A stretch of DNA of 64,000 nucleotides from Alphaproteobacteria bacterium (GTDB lineage Bacteria; Pseudomonadota; Alphaproteobacteria; RF32; CAG-239), in NCBI GenBank assembly GCA_045603405.1, contig JAZUMA010000032.1, forward strand, positions 102 through 64,101. Direction: 5' to 3'. Positions within the stretch are counted from its first letter, which is position 1, and every line of letters starts with the position of its first letter. The position numbers were made by a program, and so were the translations under genes. The notes under the pieces were generated by a model. The model searched no databases. It had not been told where the DNA came from and saw only the letters and a list, made by a program, of their open reading frames with translations. Below are positions 2,414 through 44,426 of this stretch, piece after piece.

Positions 2414-3229
2414 ATGGCAGAAGTTTATACTATTGATGGGCAAAGATATGAAGTAGAAGTAGAAAAAAGCTCTGACGGAAAACAAAAACTTGTTATTAAC
2501 GGTCAAGAAATAACACTTCAAACAAGTCGAGTTAATGAAAGAGGGTTCGGTGTTGAGTTAAATATAGTTGCCAGTGGAAAAAATGTAGAATTAGGAAAAA
2601 CAGCATATGAATTCGCATATAAAGGCCCGTCAATAGATGAAATTAATGCTGTGATGAAAGAACGTGTCGCTAGGGGGACTGCAACACAAATGGAAAGAGT
2701 TGCTGTTTACCAACAACAATACAATAATAGAGCTGTGGCAGAAGCATTAGCTAAAGGAAAATCAGAAACTGAAGCTGATTTATTGAAGTTAAAAGAGTCA
2801 CAGATTTCCGGAAAAGAACCATTGCCGGATATAAAGAAAAGATTTCCTTGGGCATATGCATCTAAAACAGAACGTGCAAAAGATTATATAACACAAAAAT
2901 TAAATAAAGACGCAGCTTATAGAGTAAAGTGTCGCCGTTTTTTAGAAGAAAAAAAGGAAGAAATGTTTGATCAGATGTATCGAGAAGGAAATAAAATTAT
3001 CATTAAAGATGGTTTTGCAAAAAATGAAGATCCCGCAGAAAATGATCTTCATAAAGATTTGGCCCTGCAGGAGAAAGCCAGCAAAGCATGGTCTGGATTG
3101 GATAATTCAAAAAACGATGAGAAAACAAAACGTCTTGTCGCTGCAGCTAATGCTAAGCAAAATCAGGAAAAGAAGGCAAGTCATCAAGTGCCTATACAAC
3201 AAATGACAGATGGTCACGACAGAGCATAA
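2414..3229 (+). CDS. Hypothetical protein (271 aa, hydrophilic, no recognised family)
   Basis: Long ORF with SD AAGGAG at 2401-2406 and a terminator at 3237-3264. Confidence 0.6.
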   Translation: MAEVYTIDGQRYEVEVEKSSDGKQKLVINGQEITLQTSRVNERGFGVELNIVASGKNVELGKTAYEFAYKGPSIDEINAVMKERVARGTATQMERVAVYQQQYNNRAVAEALAKGKSETEADLLKLKESQISGKEPLPDIKKRFPWAYASKTERAKDYITQKLNKDAAYRVKCRRFLEEKKEEMFDQMYREGNKIIIKDGFAKNEDPAENDLHKDLALQEKASKAWSGLDNSKNDEKTKRLVAAANAKQNQEKKASHQVPIQQMTDGHDRA

Positions 3230-3236
3230 TTTAAAA

Positions 3237-3264
3237 AAAGTGCCATAAGTGAGGCACTTTTTTT
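3237..3264 (+). terminator. Intrinsic terminator
   Basis: Stem AAAGTGCC/GGCACTTT followed by a T-run. Confidence 0.75.
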
Positions 3265-3284
3265 GTACCTGGTAATATATTTGC

Positions 3285-3313
3285 TTGACAACTAGTAGAA
3301 AACAAGTCAAAAT
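3285..3313 (+). promoter_or_regulatory. Sigma70-like promoter of the cysS leader transcript
   Basis: TTGACA (3285-3290), 17-nt spacer, CAAAAT (3308-3313). Confidence 0.45.
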
Positions 3314-3333
3314 CCACCTCAAAGAGAGGAAAA

Positions 3334-3384
3334 ATGCTTTATGATATGAAGAATATTTGTTGTTGCTGTTGCTTAAACTCCTAA
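3334..3384 (+). CDS. Putative cysS leader peptide MLYDMKNICCCCCLNS (16 codons, five consecutive Cys codons)
   Basis: ATG at 3334 is preceded by GAGAGG (3324-3329). Codons TGT TGT TGC TGT TGC span 3358-3372 and TAA is at 3382-3384. The ORF lies between a promoter and a terminator directly upstream of cysS. It is too short for the ORF track. Confidence 0.55.
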   Translation: MLYDMKNICCCCCLNS

Positions 3385-3424
3385 AGCTTTGCTGCCGGAG
3401 CTGGTTTCAGCTATAATAAAAATA

Positions 3425-3446
3425 GGCGGCGCAGAGCCGCTTTTTT
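3425..3446 (+). terminator. Attenuator-type intrinsic terminator 17 nt upstream of the cysS start
   Basis: GGCGGC-GCAGA-GCCGC followed by TTTTTT. GCTGCC (3391-3396) can alternatively pair with the left arm GGCGGC (one G-U pair). Confidence 0.6.
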
Positions 3447-3463
3447 AATTTAGAACAAAGGAT

Positions 3464-4888
3464 ATGATGATGAGCGTATATTTATATAACACTAAGACAA
3501 GAAACAAAGATGAGTTTATTCCGTTGAATGCGCCGGAAGTAACAATGTATTGTTGTGGCCCGACAGTATATAACTATGCGCATATCGGTAACCTGAGAAC
3601 TTATATATATGAAGATTTATTGGCAAATACTTTACGTTTAGCCGGATACAAAGTAAAACATGTGATGAACATAACCGACGTTGGTCATTTAACCAGTGAT
3701 GGCGATGAGGGTGAAGATAAGATGCAGGTTGCAGCCGAACGTGAAAAAAAGAGCGTTTTAGATATAGCGCGCATGTATGAAGACGCTTTTTTCCGTCACA
3801 CTGCGGCACTCGGACTTAAAAGACCGACAATAGTTTGCCGTGCAACTGAGCATATCCAAGATATGATAGAATTTGTAAAAGTACTTGAGGATAAAGGATT
3901 TGCCTATATTTCAAATGGTAACGTTTATTTTGATACAGCCAAATTTCCACGTTATGGTTGTTTATCAGGGCAAAGCAGAGATGATTTAAAGCATGGTGCC
4001 AGAACAGAACAAGATATGAATAAACGTAATCCGTCAGATTTTGTCCTTTGGTTTACTTCCTCAAAGTTTGAAAACCAAATTTTACAATGGGACAGCCCAT
4101 GGGGAAGGGGGTATCCTGGATGGCACATAGAATGCTCGACCATGGCAACCAAGTACTTAGGAGAGCGCATTGATATCCACTGCGGCGGAATAGACCATAT
4201 TCCGGTTCATCATGAAAATGAAATTGCTCAGTCAGAGGCGCGTTTAGGACACGAATGGGTGAATTATTGGGTGCACATGGAATTTTTAAATAACAAAAGC
4301 GGAAAGATGAGTAAATCAAAGGGCGGTTTCTTAACTTTAGATACATTAGAAGAAAAAGGTTACAAGCCGGTGCATTACAAATATTTCTGCTTAACTTCAC
4401 ATTATCGCAGTACAGCAATCTTTTCTGAAGAAGCAATGGATGCCGCTAAAAAAGCCTATGAAAATTTAGCAGATTATGTGGCAACATTTAAAGCAACCGC
4501 GAAAAATATGCTGACAGATAGTGAAAAAATAGAATTAGAGACACTAAAAAATGAATTTAATTTTTATTTATTTGATGATTTAAAAACACCCATGGCTCTT
4601 TCTTACATGTGGAATATTGTTAAAGATAATAAAAAATCTGAAACATTGCGTTTATCTTTCTTAATGCATATTGATGGTGTACTAAATCTGTTTTTGAAAG
4701 ATATAGCTCCCAAAGCAATAGCAAAAGTCGAAGTAACAACAGAAATTGCAGAATTATTAGCACAAAGAGCTGAAGCTCGTGCTGCTAAAGATTGGGTAAA
4801 ATCAGATGAAATAAGAGATAAATTGGCAGCCTTAGGAATAGGAGTTAAAGATCTGCCGAATAAAGAAATTGAATTAATTAAATTATGA
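3464..4888 (+). CDS. cysS: Cysteine--tRNA ligase
   Basis: Class I HIGH motif (YNYAHIGNLR) and KMSKS (GKMSKSKG). The 474-aa length is typical of CysRS. Confidence 0.95.
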   Translation: MMMSVYLYNTKTRNKDEFIPLNAPEVTMYCCGPTVYNYAHIGNLRTYIYEDLLANTLRLAGYKVKHVMNITDVGHLTSDGDEGEDKMQVAAEREKKSVLDIARMYEDAFFRHTAALGLKRPTIVCRATEHIQDMIEFVKVLEDKGFAYISNGNVYFDTAKFPRYGCLSGQSRDDLKHGARTEQDMNKRNPSDFVLWFTSSKFENQILQWDSPWGRGYPGWHIECSTMATKYLGERIDIHCGGIDHIPVHHENEIAQSEARLGHEWVNYWVHMEFLNNKSGKMSKSKGGFLTLDTLEEKGYKPVHYKYFCLTSHYRSTAIFSEEAMDAAKKAYENLADYVATFKATAKNMLTDSEKIELETLKNEFNFYLFDDLKTPMALSYMWNIVKDNKKSETLRLSFLMHIDGVLNLFLKDIAPKAIAKVEVTTEIAELLAQRAEARAAKDWVKSDEIRDKLAALGIGVKDLPNKEIELIKL

Positions 4889-5148
4889 GGAAGACAATGA
4901 CAAACGAAAATGAAAAAATAGAAGATTTAAGCTTTGAAGAAGCCTTAGCAAAGCTCGAGAGTATAGTGAGAGAGCTTGAAAGCGGTAAAATTAAACTGGA
5001 TGATGCCGTAAGCAGTTATGAGAGAGCCGTAGCATTAAAAAAACTCTGCCAAGACAAACTTAATGCGGCGGCGCTAAAGGTTGAAAAAATAGAAATAGCA
5101 AAAGACGGTACACTTTCAACTGCTCCATTGGAAAATGTTGAAGCTTGA
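4885..5148 (+). CDS. xseB: Exodeoxyribonuclease VII small subunit
   Basis: LSFEEALAKLESIVRELESG is the typical XseB N-terminus. The start overlaps the cysS stop (ATGA). Confidence 0.85.
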   Translation: MRKTMTNENEKIEDLSFEEALAKLESIVRELESGKIKLDDAVSSYERAVALKKLCQDKLNAAALKVEKIEIAKDGTLSTAPLENVEA

Positions 5149-5161
5149 TTAAGGGACCAAA

Positions 5162-6055
5162 ATGACTGAAATAGAAACAGTATTGAAAGAGTTTTCAAAG
5201 AAATTTAATCAAGATTTGGAAAAATATTTTCCTCAGACAGGGAACCTAGAACATCGTGCAGTTAGAGCAATGCAATACAGTCTGATGAATGGCGGAAAAA
5301 GGTTGCGTCCATTTTTATTGCATGAAACAGCTTCAATTTTCGGCGTTCCGTATGAAATAGCTTTTCCTATAGCCGCATCACTTGAAATGTTACATACATA
5401 CTCTTTAATACACGATGATTTACCGGCAATGGATAATGATAATTTCCGTCGTGGTAAGCCGACATGTCATAAGGCATTTGATGAAGCAACGGCGATTCTA
5501 GCCGGAGATGGACTTTTAACCTATGCTTTTGAAGTATTAAATAAAGCTATTTTAGAACCACATAAGAAGGTTGAACTGACATTGATGTTGGCAGAGGCTG
5601 CTGGTGCTTTTAGGGGAATGATAGCCGGACAAGTACTTGATTTATACACAGATATGCATCAATTAGTGGCAAATCCTGAACAATTAATTAAGCATATAGA
5701 GGAACTTAAAACGGGATGCTTGCTTCGCTATCCGTGTGAAGCCGGTGCAATTTTGGGAAATGCTACATCAGAAGAAAAGAAGCTTCTTATTAACTATTCG
5801 CGAAACATCGGCATAGCATTCCAAATAACGGATGATATCTTAGATGTCGAAGGGGATGAAAAATTGGTCGGTAAGACGCTGAATAAAGATAAAACTCAAC
5901 AAAAGCTAAATTTCGTCAGCATATATGGTGTCAGTAAAGCCAAACAAATGGCACAAGAACTAGTTAAGGAAGCTAAAGAAACAATTTCTGTTTTTGGTTC
6001 TCGCGCAGACCATTTAAAAGATTTGTCAAGCTATATTTTAACCAGAAATCATTAA
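5162..6055 (+). CDS. ispA: (2E,6E)-farnesyl/geranylgeranyl diphosphate synthase
   Basis: Two Asp-rich motifs, LIHDDLPAMDNDNFRRGKP and ITDDILD. The xseB-ispA adjacency is common. Confidence 0.9.
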   Translation: MTEIETVLKEFSKKFNQDLEKYFPQTGNLEHRAVRAMQYSLMNGGKRLRPFLLHETASIFGVPYEIAFPIAASLEMLHTYSLIHDDLPAMDNDNFRRGKPTCHKAFDEATAILAGDGLLTYAFEVLNKAILEPHKKVELTLMLAEAAGAFRGMIAGQVLDLYTDMHQLVANPEQLIKHIEELKTGCLLRYPCEAGAILGNATSEEKKLLINYSRNIGIAFQITDDILDVEGDEKLVGKTLNKDKTQQKLNFVSIYGVSKAKQMAQELVKEAKETISVFGSRADHLKDLSSYILTRNH

Positions 6056-42062: not shown

Positions 42063-43082
42063 CTATGGATATATATCAGCGACTGCATCAGAAATTTTTT
42101 GAGCAATAATATCATTCGTAAAATATTTAAGTGTGATTTTACGCGCTTTTTGAGCTAAGTCAATTCTTTCTTCATCATGCACGAGATAGTAATTCAATAA
42201 ATAAGCTAACTCTTCTTTTGTTTTATACATAGGTATACTATTACCATATATAGCCTCTATTTCCGGCATATAGTCAGAAATAACTAAAGCGCCGGACGCA
42301 GTGGCATCATAAATACGGTTATTTATAAATCCCCAAGATTTCATATCCGGACGATGATCATTTAAAACAATTTTAGCCGAACTGTAATATTTATTTAAGT
42401 CTGTATTTGCAATATAAGGAGCTTTATACATATCGTCAGGGACTATGTTCTGCCAATTGTAGCCATATACAGCGACATTAAATCCGCTTTCTATAGCATA
42501 ACGTAAACTTGTGCGATCATGCCAATTAGAGCCGACAAATAAAATATCCTGTCTTAAATTATCTTGAGGATTGGGATAAAATTTTTTAGGATTTGTAAAC
42601 TGGGGTACATAAATAGCATTAATACCACTTTTTTTTAGATTTTCAGCGTAAGTAGGTGAAGCCACGGCTATAATCTCATAATTTTGCCAATCATCATCAA
42701 GCGAACTGTCTGGTGGCATTTGCGCTCTTTTAGCTAGCTCTTTTTTGACCGGTTTATTACCGGAAGTTTTCCAAAAAGCCATCGGATAATAGCAATATAG
42801 AACATTAATCCCTTTAGGAAAAGGAGCAACAAATTTTGTATACCCCCGCATAAAAATATTAAATTTAGGTTCTGGTGTATGCAATCGATTATATTCACCT
42901 CGATAATCGATATCTACGGTTTTGCCTATTTGCTGAAAACCTTCAGCCAAATCCTCTCCAATCCAATAGTCGCCGATATTAATCTCATCTCTGTTTGTTG
43001 TAGATTTAATAACAACCTCGGCAGCAACAGCATTAAAAGCTAACATTAACATCATAAAAAAAAGATAAAATGTACGAAACAT
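42063..43082 (-). CDS. CgeB-family / GT1-like glycosyltransferase domain protein with an N-terminal signal or anchor
   Basis: The C-terminal NNRIYDATASGALVISD...KTKEEL pattern is typical of the Glyco_trans_1_2/CgeB family. Confidence 0.55.
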   Translation of the reverse strand: MFRTFYLFFMMLMLAFNAVAAEVVIKSTTNRDEINIGDYWIGEDLAEGFQQIGKTVDIDYRGEYNRLHTPEPKFNIFMRGYTKFVAPFPKGINVLYCYYPMAFWKTSGNKPVKKELAKRAQMPPDSSLDDDWQNYEIIAVASPTYAENLKKSGINAIYVPQFTNPKKFYPNPQDNLRQDILFVGSNWHDRTSLRYAIESGFNVAVYGYNWQNIVPDDMYKAPYIANTDLNKYYSSAKIVLNDHRPDMKSWGFINNRIYDATASGALVISDYMPEIEAIYGNSIPMYKTKEELAYLLNYYLVHDEERIDLAQKARKITLKYFTNDIIAQKISDAVADIYP

Positions 43083-43097
43083 TGTATTCCTATCAAG

Positions 43098-44426
43098 TTA
43101 AAAAAGTGAATCCTTGCGTTTGTCTTGCTCCATCTTAGCTTTTAAATCTTCAGCGCGTAATTTGATATCGGACCTTAAGGGAGATTTCAATGCTTTATTT
43201 AACATTTTTTGTGCTAAAGCGTTTTCTCCGATAGAATGGTTATATTCTGCTAAATAGTAATCAGCAACAGCTGGATTTCCTGTTTCGGCATAAATTTGCC
43301 CTAAATAAAGAAAAGCACTGGGAGAATTTCCATGTCTGCTGATATTCTCTAAAGAAGGGATAAGCGCTTCAATTTCTTGTCTAGATGGGGAATTGGCTAA
43401 TACTGCTTCGGCATAACTTAACTTAAATAAACTGGAATAAGGGCGCAACTCGACAGTTTTTTTATAAATAGTTGCTGCTTCTTTTGTACGTCCGCTCTCG
43501 AATAAAGCCTGAGCTTTAAGTTCATAAAAATAAGGATTGTTAGGTTCTCTAGCAATTAATTCATCAGCATATTTTAGCGTTTGTTCCAAATTTTTTTGCC
43601 GCATATAATAGACTGTATGCGCAATCAAACCATATATAGATTGGTCATTAAGAGGAAAACGATTTAAAACTCTCGGGAGTGGCTCTAAATAAGCAAAAAG
43701 CTTAGCTTGTATTCGTTTCAAGCGCTCATCCATTGAAGTGTTGGCTAAAATATGGTTTTCTTTTTTTATTTTTTCTTCAAAGAAAGCAATACGTTCCGTA
43801 GTAATCGGGTGCGTACGAAAATAAGGAGATTCCTCAATACCTTGTAAGCGATTACTATGTTGAATTTTAGTCATAAAATCTTTTAATCCCTTAACGGATT
43901 TATCTTTCTTTCCCAACAATAAAACTGCAGTTTCATCAGCTGCGCGTTCTTCGCTCATTTGATATGCGGTCATGGCATTAATGGCAGAACTTTGTGTTCC
44001 AAGTACAACTGCTATTGCCGCATCTCCGCGACCGCTGGCAACGGCAGCGCCTGCAGCAGCAACTAATGATGCTAAAGAAACTTTTTGCATATCTTGCATT
44101 TTAATTTTAAGTCTTAGGATATGTCCGCCCAAAATATGTCCGGTTTCATGAGCCAAAACACCTTCAAGTTCATTACTGTTAGAAGCCTCAACAAGAGTAC
44201 CTGTATGAATGAACATATGATTTTGATCGCCAACGAAAGCATTAAGACTATCATCTTTAACAATATGAATATGATCGCGATAAAGCGGTAACGAAGCTGC
44301 TTCAAAAATAGGGCGCAGTATATCAGTCAAAAAACTTTCTGTTTCTTCATCACTGATAATACTTAATGCCTGTGCATTATAGCTAAGAAGAAAACTCAAA
44401 ATAAAAATACCCAGTCGCCGTAACAT
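43098..44426 (-). CDS. M48-family metalloprotease with C-terminal TPR repeats (BepA-like)
   Basis: Signal peptide, the HETGHILGGH zinc motif and TPR-like repeats in the C-terminal half. Confidence 0.8.
   Translation of the reverse strand: MLRRLGIFILSFLLSYNAQALSIISDEETESFLTDILRPIFEAASLPLYRDHIHIVKDDSLNAFVGDQNHMFIHTGTLVEASNSNELEGVLAHETGHILGGHILRLKIKMQDMQKVSLASLVAAAGAAVASGRGDAAIAVVLGTQSSAINAMTAYQMSEERAADETAVLLLGKKDKSVKGLKDFMTKIQHSNRLQGIEESPYFRTHPITTERIAFFEEKIKKENHILANTSMDERLKRIQAKLFAYLEPLPRVLNRFPLNDQSIYGLIAHTVYYMRQKNLEQTLKYADELIAREPNNPYFYELKAQALFESGRTKEAATIYKKTVELRPYSSLFKLSYAEAVLANSPSRQEIEALIPSLENISRHGNSPSAFLYLGQIYAETGNPAVADYYLAEYNHSIGENALAQKMLNKALKSPLRSDIKLRAEDLKAKMEQDKRKDSLF

Follow-up and report, generated by a model that had tools for sequence, protein, structure and literature searches.

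We analyzed a window of 64,000 nucleotides (nt) from an alphaproteobacterial genome (GTDB lineage RF32; CAG-239; contig JAZUMA010000032.1 of assembly GCA_045603405.1), with a focus on the region upstream of the cysteine-tRNA ligase gene cysS. The cysS open reading frame (ORF) occupies positions 3464 to 4888 of the window (Pfam tRNA-synt_1e, E = 7e-98, plus CysS_C) and is preceded by a leader that contains a short ORF with a run of cysteine codons and a hairpin followed by a U-run. The gene and all features of the leader lie on the plus strand. A sequence-only reading of this stretch had interpreted the leader as a Cys-sensing attenuator that depends on ribosome stalling, and our computational follow-up supports that interpretation through conservation, covariation, spacing, and modeled folding.

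The leader starts with a sigma-70-type promoter (3285-3313) that consists of a -35 box TTGACA (3285-3290), a 17-nt spacer, and a -10 box CAAAAT (3308-3313). The site scored 10/12 matches in a promoter scan, and cysS transcription would start at about position 3320. Judged by sequence reading, the Shine-Dalgarno (SD) motif GAGAGG (3324-3329) serves a leader ORF of 16 codons (3334-3384; MLYDMKNICCCCCLNS), which runs from an ATG at 3334 to a TAA stop codon at 3382-3384. The putative regulatory codons are five consecutive Cys codons (TGT TGT TGC TGT TGC, 3358-3372). Such a run had been considered very unlikely to arise by chance, and shuffling of the sequence excludes chance: the 64-kb window contains a single match to the pattern (TGY)5, where 0.01 would be expected. 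The predicted 5' strand of the antiterminator (3387-3396, with the core GCUGCC at 3391-3396) begins 6 nt past the leader stop codon. An intrinsic terminator with six U residues follows at 3424-3446 (stem 3424-3430/3436-3442; U-run 3441-3446), made up of GGCGGC (3425-3430), the loop GCAGA (3431-3435), GCCGC (3436-3440), and T6 (3441-3446). The terminator scan reported this site at 3424-3442 with seven pairs, five of which are G-C, and the hairpin has a folding free energy (dG) of -11.3 kcal/mol. Its left arm doubles as the 3' strand of the antiterminator.

A third structure, hairpin 1:2 (the candidate anti-antiterminator), spans 3356-3420 in both the minimum free energy (MFE) and centroid folds and holds GCUGCC in its apical part. 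The 5' arm of this hairpin is formed by the Cys codons and CUCC (3378-3381), and its 3' arm consists of GGAG (3397-3400), CAGC, and AUAAUAA. The SD motif of cysS itself, AAGGA (3457-3461), stays single-stranded in both the MFE and the centroid fold, and its sequestration is not predicted. The positions that the sequence-only reading had assigned to the promoter, the SD motif, the ORF, the Cys codons, GCTGCC, and the hairpin with T6 were all borne out by the sequence.

Next, we compared the leader among relatives. A scan with the CysS protein against one genome per GTDB species yielded 28 loci at 63 to 89% identity, all of them in metagenome-assembled genomes (MAGs) from human, mouse, and ruminant guts that are labeled as uncultured Alphaproteobacteria, some of them as "Acetobacter sp." or "Rickettsiales." The other matches in the scan were Clostridium, spirochaete, and further CysS proteins at 51 to 58% identity. 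In a large protein database, CysS homologues fell into two blocks, one at 76 to 90% identity and one at 64% or less, with a gap between them. Our comparison set comprised 26 leaders: that of the window and those of 25 GTDB species representatives with 77 to 89% identical CysS and an intact upstream region. The complete leader unit stands directly before cysS in 26/26 loci. The sequence-only reading had made its proposal depend on whether relatives keep a Cys-run ORF and a terminator upstream of cysS, and all 25 do.

The order and spacing of the elements were conserved along with their presence. All 25 relatives have (C)TTGACA(A) and a -10 box at the equivalent place despite a differing upstream neighbor gene, and a purine-rich SD-like motif (GAGG, AAGGA, or AGGA) lies at most 15 nt before the leader AUG. 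The leader ORF begins with ATG and is 14 to 16 codons long in every locus (26/26). It contains two consecutive Cys codons in 3 loci, three in 10, four in 9, and five in 4, and across the set the run is spelled in 11 different synonymous combinations of TGT and TGC. Exactly three sense codons separate the Cys run from the stop codon in 23 of the 26 leaders, the gap from the stop codon to the GCUGCC-type strand is 4 to 7 nt, and 17 to 22 nt separate the last Cys codon from GCUGCC. A terminator hairpin (dG of -8.5 to -13.8 kcal/mol) followed by six to eight U residues is found in 26/26 and ends 19 to 34 nt before the aligned N terminus of CysS. The nearest upstream ORFs of the 26 loci belong to 14 unrelated groups (13 besides the window's own) and lie on either strand, which implies that the leader unit belongs to cysS and travels with it. 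The next-nearest relatives (L025 and L081 to L084, with 59 to 64% identical CysS) have a plain promoter without the leader.

Two of the relatives, L010 and L011, carry 2.2 tandem copies of a 66-nt unit immediately before the leader (L011 positions 2692-2836 and the same region in L010). The unit contains a promoter-like site, TTGACA...CAAACT, and L011 has a second 66-nt array farther upstream (2511-2655). In the two genomes, these repeats may supply the cysS leader with stacked promoters.

The peptide encoded by the leader ORF is poorly conserved. Apart from Met1, the Cys run, and a frequent C-terminal Asn-Ser, nothing is shared, and the N-terminal halves are unrelated (e.g., MLQINEIKA, MYINLN, MVSRFQKYF, and MLTVTVISF). 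Insertions and deletions in the coding part are mostly multiples of 3 nt. The peptide thus appears to be selected for little besides its Cys run. We considered whether the short ORF might instead encode a functional Cys-rich micropeptide (for example, a metal- or redox-active one) whose position before cysS is incidental or reflects coexpression. Cys-rich small peptides exist in nature, and an SD-led ORF conserved in 26 genomes could be read in this way. Such a peptide is nevertheless hard to reconcile with a Cys run that varies from two to five residues in otherwise unrelated sequences and with antiterminator and terminator strands that always follow the ORF at a fixed distance. Even the recurrent Asn-Ser is explained by RNA pairing, since its codons (AAC UCC) coincide with the CUCC strand, the partner of the GGAG that stands right after GCUGCC. 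We regard the micropeptide as the least probable of the explanations weighed here. The small ORF is missed by gene callers, and it should not be annotated as a micropeptide gene.

Covariation was assessed in an alignment of the 26 leaders, in which the antiterminator pairs columns 78-83 with columns 119-124. The core helix GCUGCC:GGCAGC (in the window, GCUGCC at 3391-3396 with GGCGGC at 3425-3430) showed standard pairs in 151/151 alignment cells. Compensatory changes were present at two of its pairs, from G-C to A-U in L009 and from C-G to U-A in L017, L019, and L020. In the controls, slid registers paired in 10 to 63% of cells, and no shuffle reached the observed covariation score. The earlier assignment of GCTGCC as an antiterminator strand is well supported by this complete pairing and the compensatory changes. 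For the terminator core, 94% of cells were paired and three pairs showed compensatory changes. The shared strand of the window reads GGCGGC rather than GGCAGC; this A-to-G change is matched by a U-to-C change in the right arm of the terminator and is tolerated as U-G in the antiterminator, as would be expected of selection acting on both helices. The CUCC:GGAG pairing within hairpin 1:2 was found in 82% of cells, with two compensatory pairs. We judged hairpin 1:2 as a whole sequence by sequence: in the window it is convincing, with an MFE and centroid energy of -20.6 kcal/mol (z = -2.5), and a hairpin of 1:2 topology appears in the free-leader MFE fold of most of the 26, convincingly in some relatives but not in others.

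These data also bear on whether the leader acts as RNA alone, either as a constitutive leaky terminator or as a structure bound by a protein or small molecule in the manner of a riboswitch or T-box, with the Cys codons a by-product of a U/G-rich strand. The Cys codons do form the 5' arm of a hairpin, and cysS is T-box controlled in Bacillus. Against such an element, conservation extends to the reading frame, its start and stop codons, and the SD motif, and every difference among the Cys codons is synonymous; if the strand functioned only as RNA, UGG, UGA, and indels that break the frame should be tolerated too. Coding and the three pairings together explain the conserved nucleotides. A search of the leader region against Rfam 15 gave subthreshold noise only and no family match at E values up to 10; the best leader-type hit, Phe_leader (E = 8), scored 16.5 bits where the gathering score is 55. 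No T-box matched within 2900-3800 at E values up to 10 or in the whole window at the gathering score, and the only Rfam families in the whole window were two tRNAs. An RNA element of this kind therefore seems very improbable to us.

To model the effect of translation on folding, we represented the ribosome as a mask over the RNA that it covers and folded the remainder. The decision point was modeled on transcripts truncated just past the left arm of the terminator. When the A site of the modeled ribosome held the last Cys codon, the aligned antiterminator formed with P > 0.5 in 22/26 truncated RNAs, and the four exceptions formed an antiterminator in a shifted register, which brings the count to 26/26 with any register. 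The shifted register of L017 pairs AAGGGUUGCUCU with GGAGCAGCUUUU. In the truncated stalled fold of the window, 3387-3396 pairs with 3425-3434. A ribosome placed at the stop codon abolished the aligned antiterminator helix in the truncated RNAs. A looser measure, in which the left arm could pair with anything in region 2, was dropped since it did not separate the stop state from the stalled state in these RNAs.

Our main discriminating measure was the energy cost of not forming the terminator in full-length leaders. This cost averaged 11.0 kcal/mol (range, 8 to 15) without a ribosome, 9.2 kcal/mol (5.7 to 14.2) with a ribosome at the stop codon, and 3.9 kcal/mol (0.3 to 6.9) with a ribosome at the last Cys codon. 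The stalled state had a lower cost than the stop state in 26/26 leaders, by about 5 kcal/mol. The mutually exclusive terminator and antiterminator folds that the sequence-only reading had suggested looking for were found, and the modeled ribosome shifted the fold as expected in all 26.

Taken together, we consider it very likely that the leader is a classical ribosome-mediated transcription attenuator that senses Cys-tRNA(Cys) and gates cysS. Sequence elements, conservation, covariation, conserved geometry, and energetic plausibility are the classes of evidence observed. According to this model, a ribosome would load at the SD motif (3324-3329) and translate the 16-codon leader while RNA polymerase moves ahead. 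When Cys-tRNA(Cys) is plentiful, the ribosome would pass the five Cys codons and reach the stop codon (3382-3384), where its footprint would cover most of GCUGCC (3391-3396). After ribosome release, the Cys-codon region would re-pair with 3397-3420. Either way, GGCGGC (3425-3430) would be left free to pair with GCCGC (3436-3440), and transcription would terminate about 17 to 23 nt before cysS, yielding a leader RNA of about 125 nt. When Cys-tRNA(Cys) is scarce, through either a shortage of cysteine or low activity of the cysteinyl-tRNA synthetase, the ribosome would stall while a Cys codon occupies its A site. The leading edge of the ribosome would then lie at least 5 nt short of GCUGCC, and the 5' arm of hairpin 1:2 would be covered. 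The free GCUGCC would capture GGCGGC as it emerges, the terminator would not form, and the polymerase would read into cysS. In an untranslated leader the terminator would probably be favored, as after completion of the peptide. We infer from the sequence and the folding models that the upstream ORF (uORF) is translated, that termination occurs at the U-run, that the two processes are kinetically coupled, and that the leader responds to cysteine in vivo.

Several observations weigh against the attenuator as described. The terminator is still favored by about 4 kcal/mol at equilibrium in the stalled state, and the antiterminator is chosen in only 8/26 full-length stalled folds. Given this thermodynamic preference for the terminator in the presence of a stalled ribosome, switching has to rely on kinetics, as in trp. 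With a conservative footprint of +12, GCUGCC is only partly masked by a ribosome at the stop codon, and under the loose definition of region 2, some pairing of the left arm persists in the stop state. For the truncated RNA of the window, folding predicts the antiterminator (P = 0.82) even in the absence of a ribosome. Hairpin 1:2 does not align as a single helix across the set, its z-scores vary between -0.1 and -3.0 among sequences, many of them nonsignificant, and RNAalifold recovers the terminator only. Finally, three relatives have only two Cys codons in the leader ORF.

That equilibrium folding alone does not switch the terminator off also speaks for a different mode of action, in which the Cys-run uORF would work through translation (unmasking of a ribosome-binding site, in the mycobacterial style) or through Rho-dependent polarity as in tna. 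Cys-run uORFs have been tied experimentally to translational attenuation in mycobacteria (bioRxiv 10.1101/834739), and for actinobacterial Cys leader peptides that lack terminators, Rho has been suggested (PMC1262725). The leaders studied here differ from these cases in that a canonical hairpin with six to eight U residues is present in 26/26 and its left arm covaries with the antiterminator strand. Moreover, the SD motif of cysS (3457-3461) lies outside all predicted helices, and the uORF is SD-led, not leaderless. We thus judge control through translation or Rho to be unlikely, with only a slim chance of being correct.

With transcription attenuation as the preferred model, the leader is an unusually complete example of its kind: it combines five cognate codons with an antiterminator and a terminator that both covary and with a fixed ribosome geometry, and it recurs in at least 25 species of an uncultured clade. 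It would constitute a compact, sigma-70-driven, predicted cysteine-responsive switch of about 130 nt and a potential sensor of Cys-tRNA charging.

The cysS gene has three in-frame ATGs, at 3464, 3467, and 3470. The third is probably the true start, giving a product of 472 rather than 474 amino acids, because the SD motif AAGGA stands at 3457-3461 and all homologues align from Met-Ser. The sequence-only reading had placed cysS at the ATG at 3464; the identity of the gene is upheld by the Pfam matches, and the start is likelier to be the downstream codon. At its 3' end, the cysS stop codon overlaps the first candidate start codon of xseB (ATGA, 4885-4888), and ispA comes next (region 4885-6055). 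The order cysS-xseB-ispA is kept in 21 of the 25 relatives, with an insert of about 0.7 kb in 8 of those. The overlap and the kept linkage indicate that xseB and ispA are probably cotranscribed with cysS. The attenuator therefore probably gates both genes as well, unless an internal promoter exists, so the small subunit of exonuclease VII (xseB) and farnesyl-diphosphate synthase (ispA) are possibly also under Cys control.

The gene that precedes the leader (2414-3229) encodes a 271-amino-acid protein without a Pfam match and is not found at that position in the relatives. It has its own terminator on the plus strand at 3233-3264 (A7-GTGCC-ATAAGTGA-GGCAC-T7), outside the attenuator, which gives the cysS regulatory unit a clean 5' boundary. 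Rfam returned only weak matches to terminator-type small RNAs at 3233-3264.

Elsewhere in the window, a covariance model built from the 26 leaders detected no other copy of the unit. A weak match to the model at 42962-43098 was rejected, as it falls within a signal-peptide coding region. The motif GCTGCCRGAG recurs in the window only with one mismatch and never exactly, and none of these sites has a Cys run or a covariance-model match. We also scanned the window for other leader ORFs with runs of a single amino acid, and the output was too noisy to use.

The CysS protein of the window is 57% identical to one spirochaete and one Clostridium CysS (L028 and L031), compared with 36 to 42% for the CysS proteins of Paracoccus (36%), Sinorhizobium, and Sphingomonas (L085 to L087). 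This suggests that cysS is xenologous in these gut Alphaproteobacteria. Beyond the clade, the covariance model found nothing credible in 99 other cysS loci (best E = 0.06, at a site that is not upstream of cysS). The Paracoccus plasmid cysS (L086), the sole Rhodobacterales cysS compared, is a second copy that lies 49 nt behind another gene and lacks a leader. Among 74 diverse metagenomic cysS loci (39 to 61% identical to a Paracoccus seed), uORFs with Cys-Cys were as frequent as in the reverse-complement control (5/74 versus 5/74). By this sequence count, cysS genes do not in general have a Cys-Cys uORF upstream.

Three single loci have Cys-containing short ORFs upstream of cysS. In Sinorhizobium meliloti (L087), the ORF MKTVICIICRNIIR lies at about 650-700, right after a promoter-like TTGACC...GATAAG; in Sphingomonas (L085), MPDMNALVMWRPCCGD... 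lies at about 941-1043; and in the metagenomic contig L113, METLRPKPRPCCRRC (687-734) comes right after a TATAAT. Hairpins follow all three ORFs, with no clear U-run terminator.

At least nine of the Clostridiaceae loci retrieved in the CysS scan have SD-led uORFs with 3 to 10 consecutive Cys codons upstream of cysS: L029 (2807-2857), L030 (2835-2882), L039 (2751-2795), L046 (2806-2847), L053 (44-85), L035 (2814-2876), L036 (2735-2818), L038 (2709-2789), and L051 (2751-2855). The encoded peptides include MCRCCCCCYCCEKIKI, MFMCCCCCYNIKILT, MCICCCCCYYKNI, MTCCCCCCLSGC..., and MCCCCCCCCCCRIV..., and the uORF before the Haloimpatiens cysS has ten consecutive Cys codons. We folded ten clostridial loci, and in all except L063 a hairpin with a U-run follows the uORF. 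In the stalled-state folds, a strand near the stop codon pairs with the left arm of the terminator and thus represents a possible antiterminator. Cys-Cys uORFs were present at 11/51 nonalphaproteobacterial loci, compared with 3/51 in the reverse-complement control.

A T-box would be expected at the cysS of Clostridiaceae. A search of 20 cysS loci against Rfam (10 Clostridiaceae together with spirochaete, alphaproteobacterial MAG, and other loci) returned no family and no T-box, so that none of the loci supplied a T-box leader for contrast. At the Clostridiaceae loci scanned, four of which carry poly-Cys uORFs, no T-box was detected within 3 kb. The covariance model of the alphaproteobacterial leaders did not detect the clostridial poly-Cys leaders. 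These may be convergent, or they may be related leaders that traveled with the gene and diverged. Our search of the accessible literature turned up no description of them.

Other Clostridium cysS loci (L032, L034, L041, L044, L049, L050, L052, and L057) share a distinct conserved leader about 60 to 140 nt upstream of the gene. It lies behind a TTGCAT...TA(A/G)AAT promoter, ends near ...TTTATACTTTGAAGnTTAAAGCTGCAGCAnGCCTGTAGCTTTTTATATT, and contains no Cys-run uORF; in the two loci scanned (L032 and L034), it had no Rfam match.

Together with the Clostridiaceae cases, the leader studied here suggests that leader-peptide control of cysS is commoner than annotated. A broader proposal, which we put forward tentatively and with somewhat less than even confidence, is that poly-Cys cysS leaders are recurrent, largely unannotated, and independently evolved in gut Alphaproteobacteria, Clostridiaceae, Rhodobacterales, and Deinococcus, or else that the unit arrived with a Clostridia- or spirochaete-type cysS by horizontal transfer and then diverged. 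On either version, if true, no other synthetase gene would be known to have leader-peptide control as widespread as that of cysS, and attenuators and T-boxes would replace each other on the same gene.

The closest described counterpart is uORFC-8-2 (Brewer et al. 2021, RNA Biol, PMC8632094), a computational prediction with 145 examples, all of them before cysS in Rhodobacterales. Its AUG-initiated uORF contains a tandem pair of Cys codons, mostly at positions 14 and 15; a first stem holds these codons, a second stem with a U-run serves as the terminator, and the authors propose ribosome-mediated attenuation (PMC8632094). The statement in the sequence-only reading that no leader-peptide attenuator of cysS had been described in Proteobacteria is therefore incorrect in view of this 2021 prediction (PMC8632094). 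Our literature search found no follow-up paper on uORFC-8-2. The two systems share the regulated gene, the bacterial class of their hosts (Alphaproteobacteria), an AUG uORF with tandem Cys codons, two stems, and the logic by which stalling leads to read-through. They differ in that uORFC-8-2 is reported from Rhodobacterales only and has two Cys codons, whereas the present leader belongs to a gut and rumen clade, has two to five Cys codons at about codons 7 to 13, and includes an explicit covarying antiterminator. Common descent is doubtful because the CysS proteins are of different subtypes (57% identity to spirochaete and Clostridium CysS versus 36 to 42% to alphaproteobacterial CysS); the leaders were compared through the published description of uORFC-8-2, not through its sequences. 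In Deinococcus deserti, a leaderless 10-amino-acid, two-Cys leader peptide was noted on the cysS mRNA, and attenuation was suggested (de Groot et al. 2014, PMC4007540). This case resembles ours in having a Cys-containing leader peptide on the cysS mRNA and differs in being leaderless, in having two Cys codons only, and, as far as the available part of the description goes, in having no terminator or antiterminator (PMC4007540).

Other Cys-codon leaders act on other genes. Ahead of actinobacterial cys operons, Seliverstov et al. (2005; PMC1262725) predicted leader peptides that have Cys runs but no terminators; for trpS and leuS in Streptomyces, they predicted classical attenuators. The mycobacterial poly-Cys leaderless small ORFs (the "Cys ribulon") were shown experimentally to act on translation (Canestrari et al. 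2020, bioRxiv 10.1101/834739) and are the only experimentally tested Cys-codon attenuators that our literature search found. They share with our proposed attenuator the use of a very short uORF in which ribosomes stalled at consecutive Cys codons report on cysteine; unlike our leader, the mycobacterial uORFs are leaderless, act by unmasking the ribosome-binding site, have no intrinsic terminator, and precede cysteine-metabolism operons rather than cysS. The T-box of cysE-cysS in Bacillus and other Firmicutes achieves a similar outcome, in that uncharged tRNA-Cys raises terminator read-through before cysS, but it senses the tRNA directly by RNA-tRNA pairing and has no uORF.

Among attenuators of synthetase genes, pheM-pheST of Escherichia coli (Rfam Phe_leader, RF01859) and the predicted trpS and leuS leaders are similar in combining a synthetase with a leader rich in its own amino acid and with alternative terminator and antiterminator hairpins; they respond to other amino acids and have no sequence relationship to the leader described here. 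The biosynthetic attenuators of trp, his, leu, thr, and ilv share the 1:2, 2:3, and 3:4 design, with the regulatory codons in strand 1 and the stop codon just upstream of strand 2, and the run of five codons resembles the designs of his (seven His codons) and pheA. The present leader departs from them in controlling a synthetase and not a biosynthetic pathway and in having a weakly supported 1:2 hairpin. The type of mechanism has already been proposed for cysS; the host clade and the clostridial cases add to its distribution and extend the predicted Cys-tRNA-sensing control of cysS beyond Rhodobacterales.

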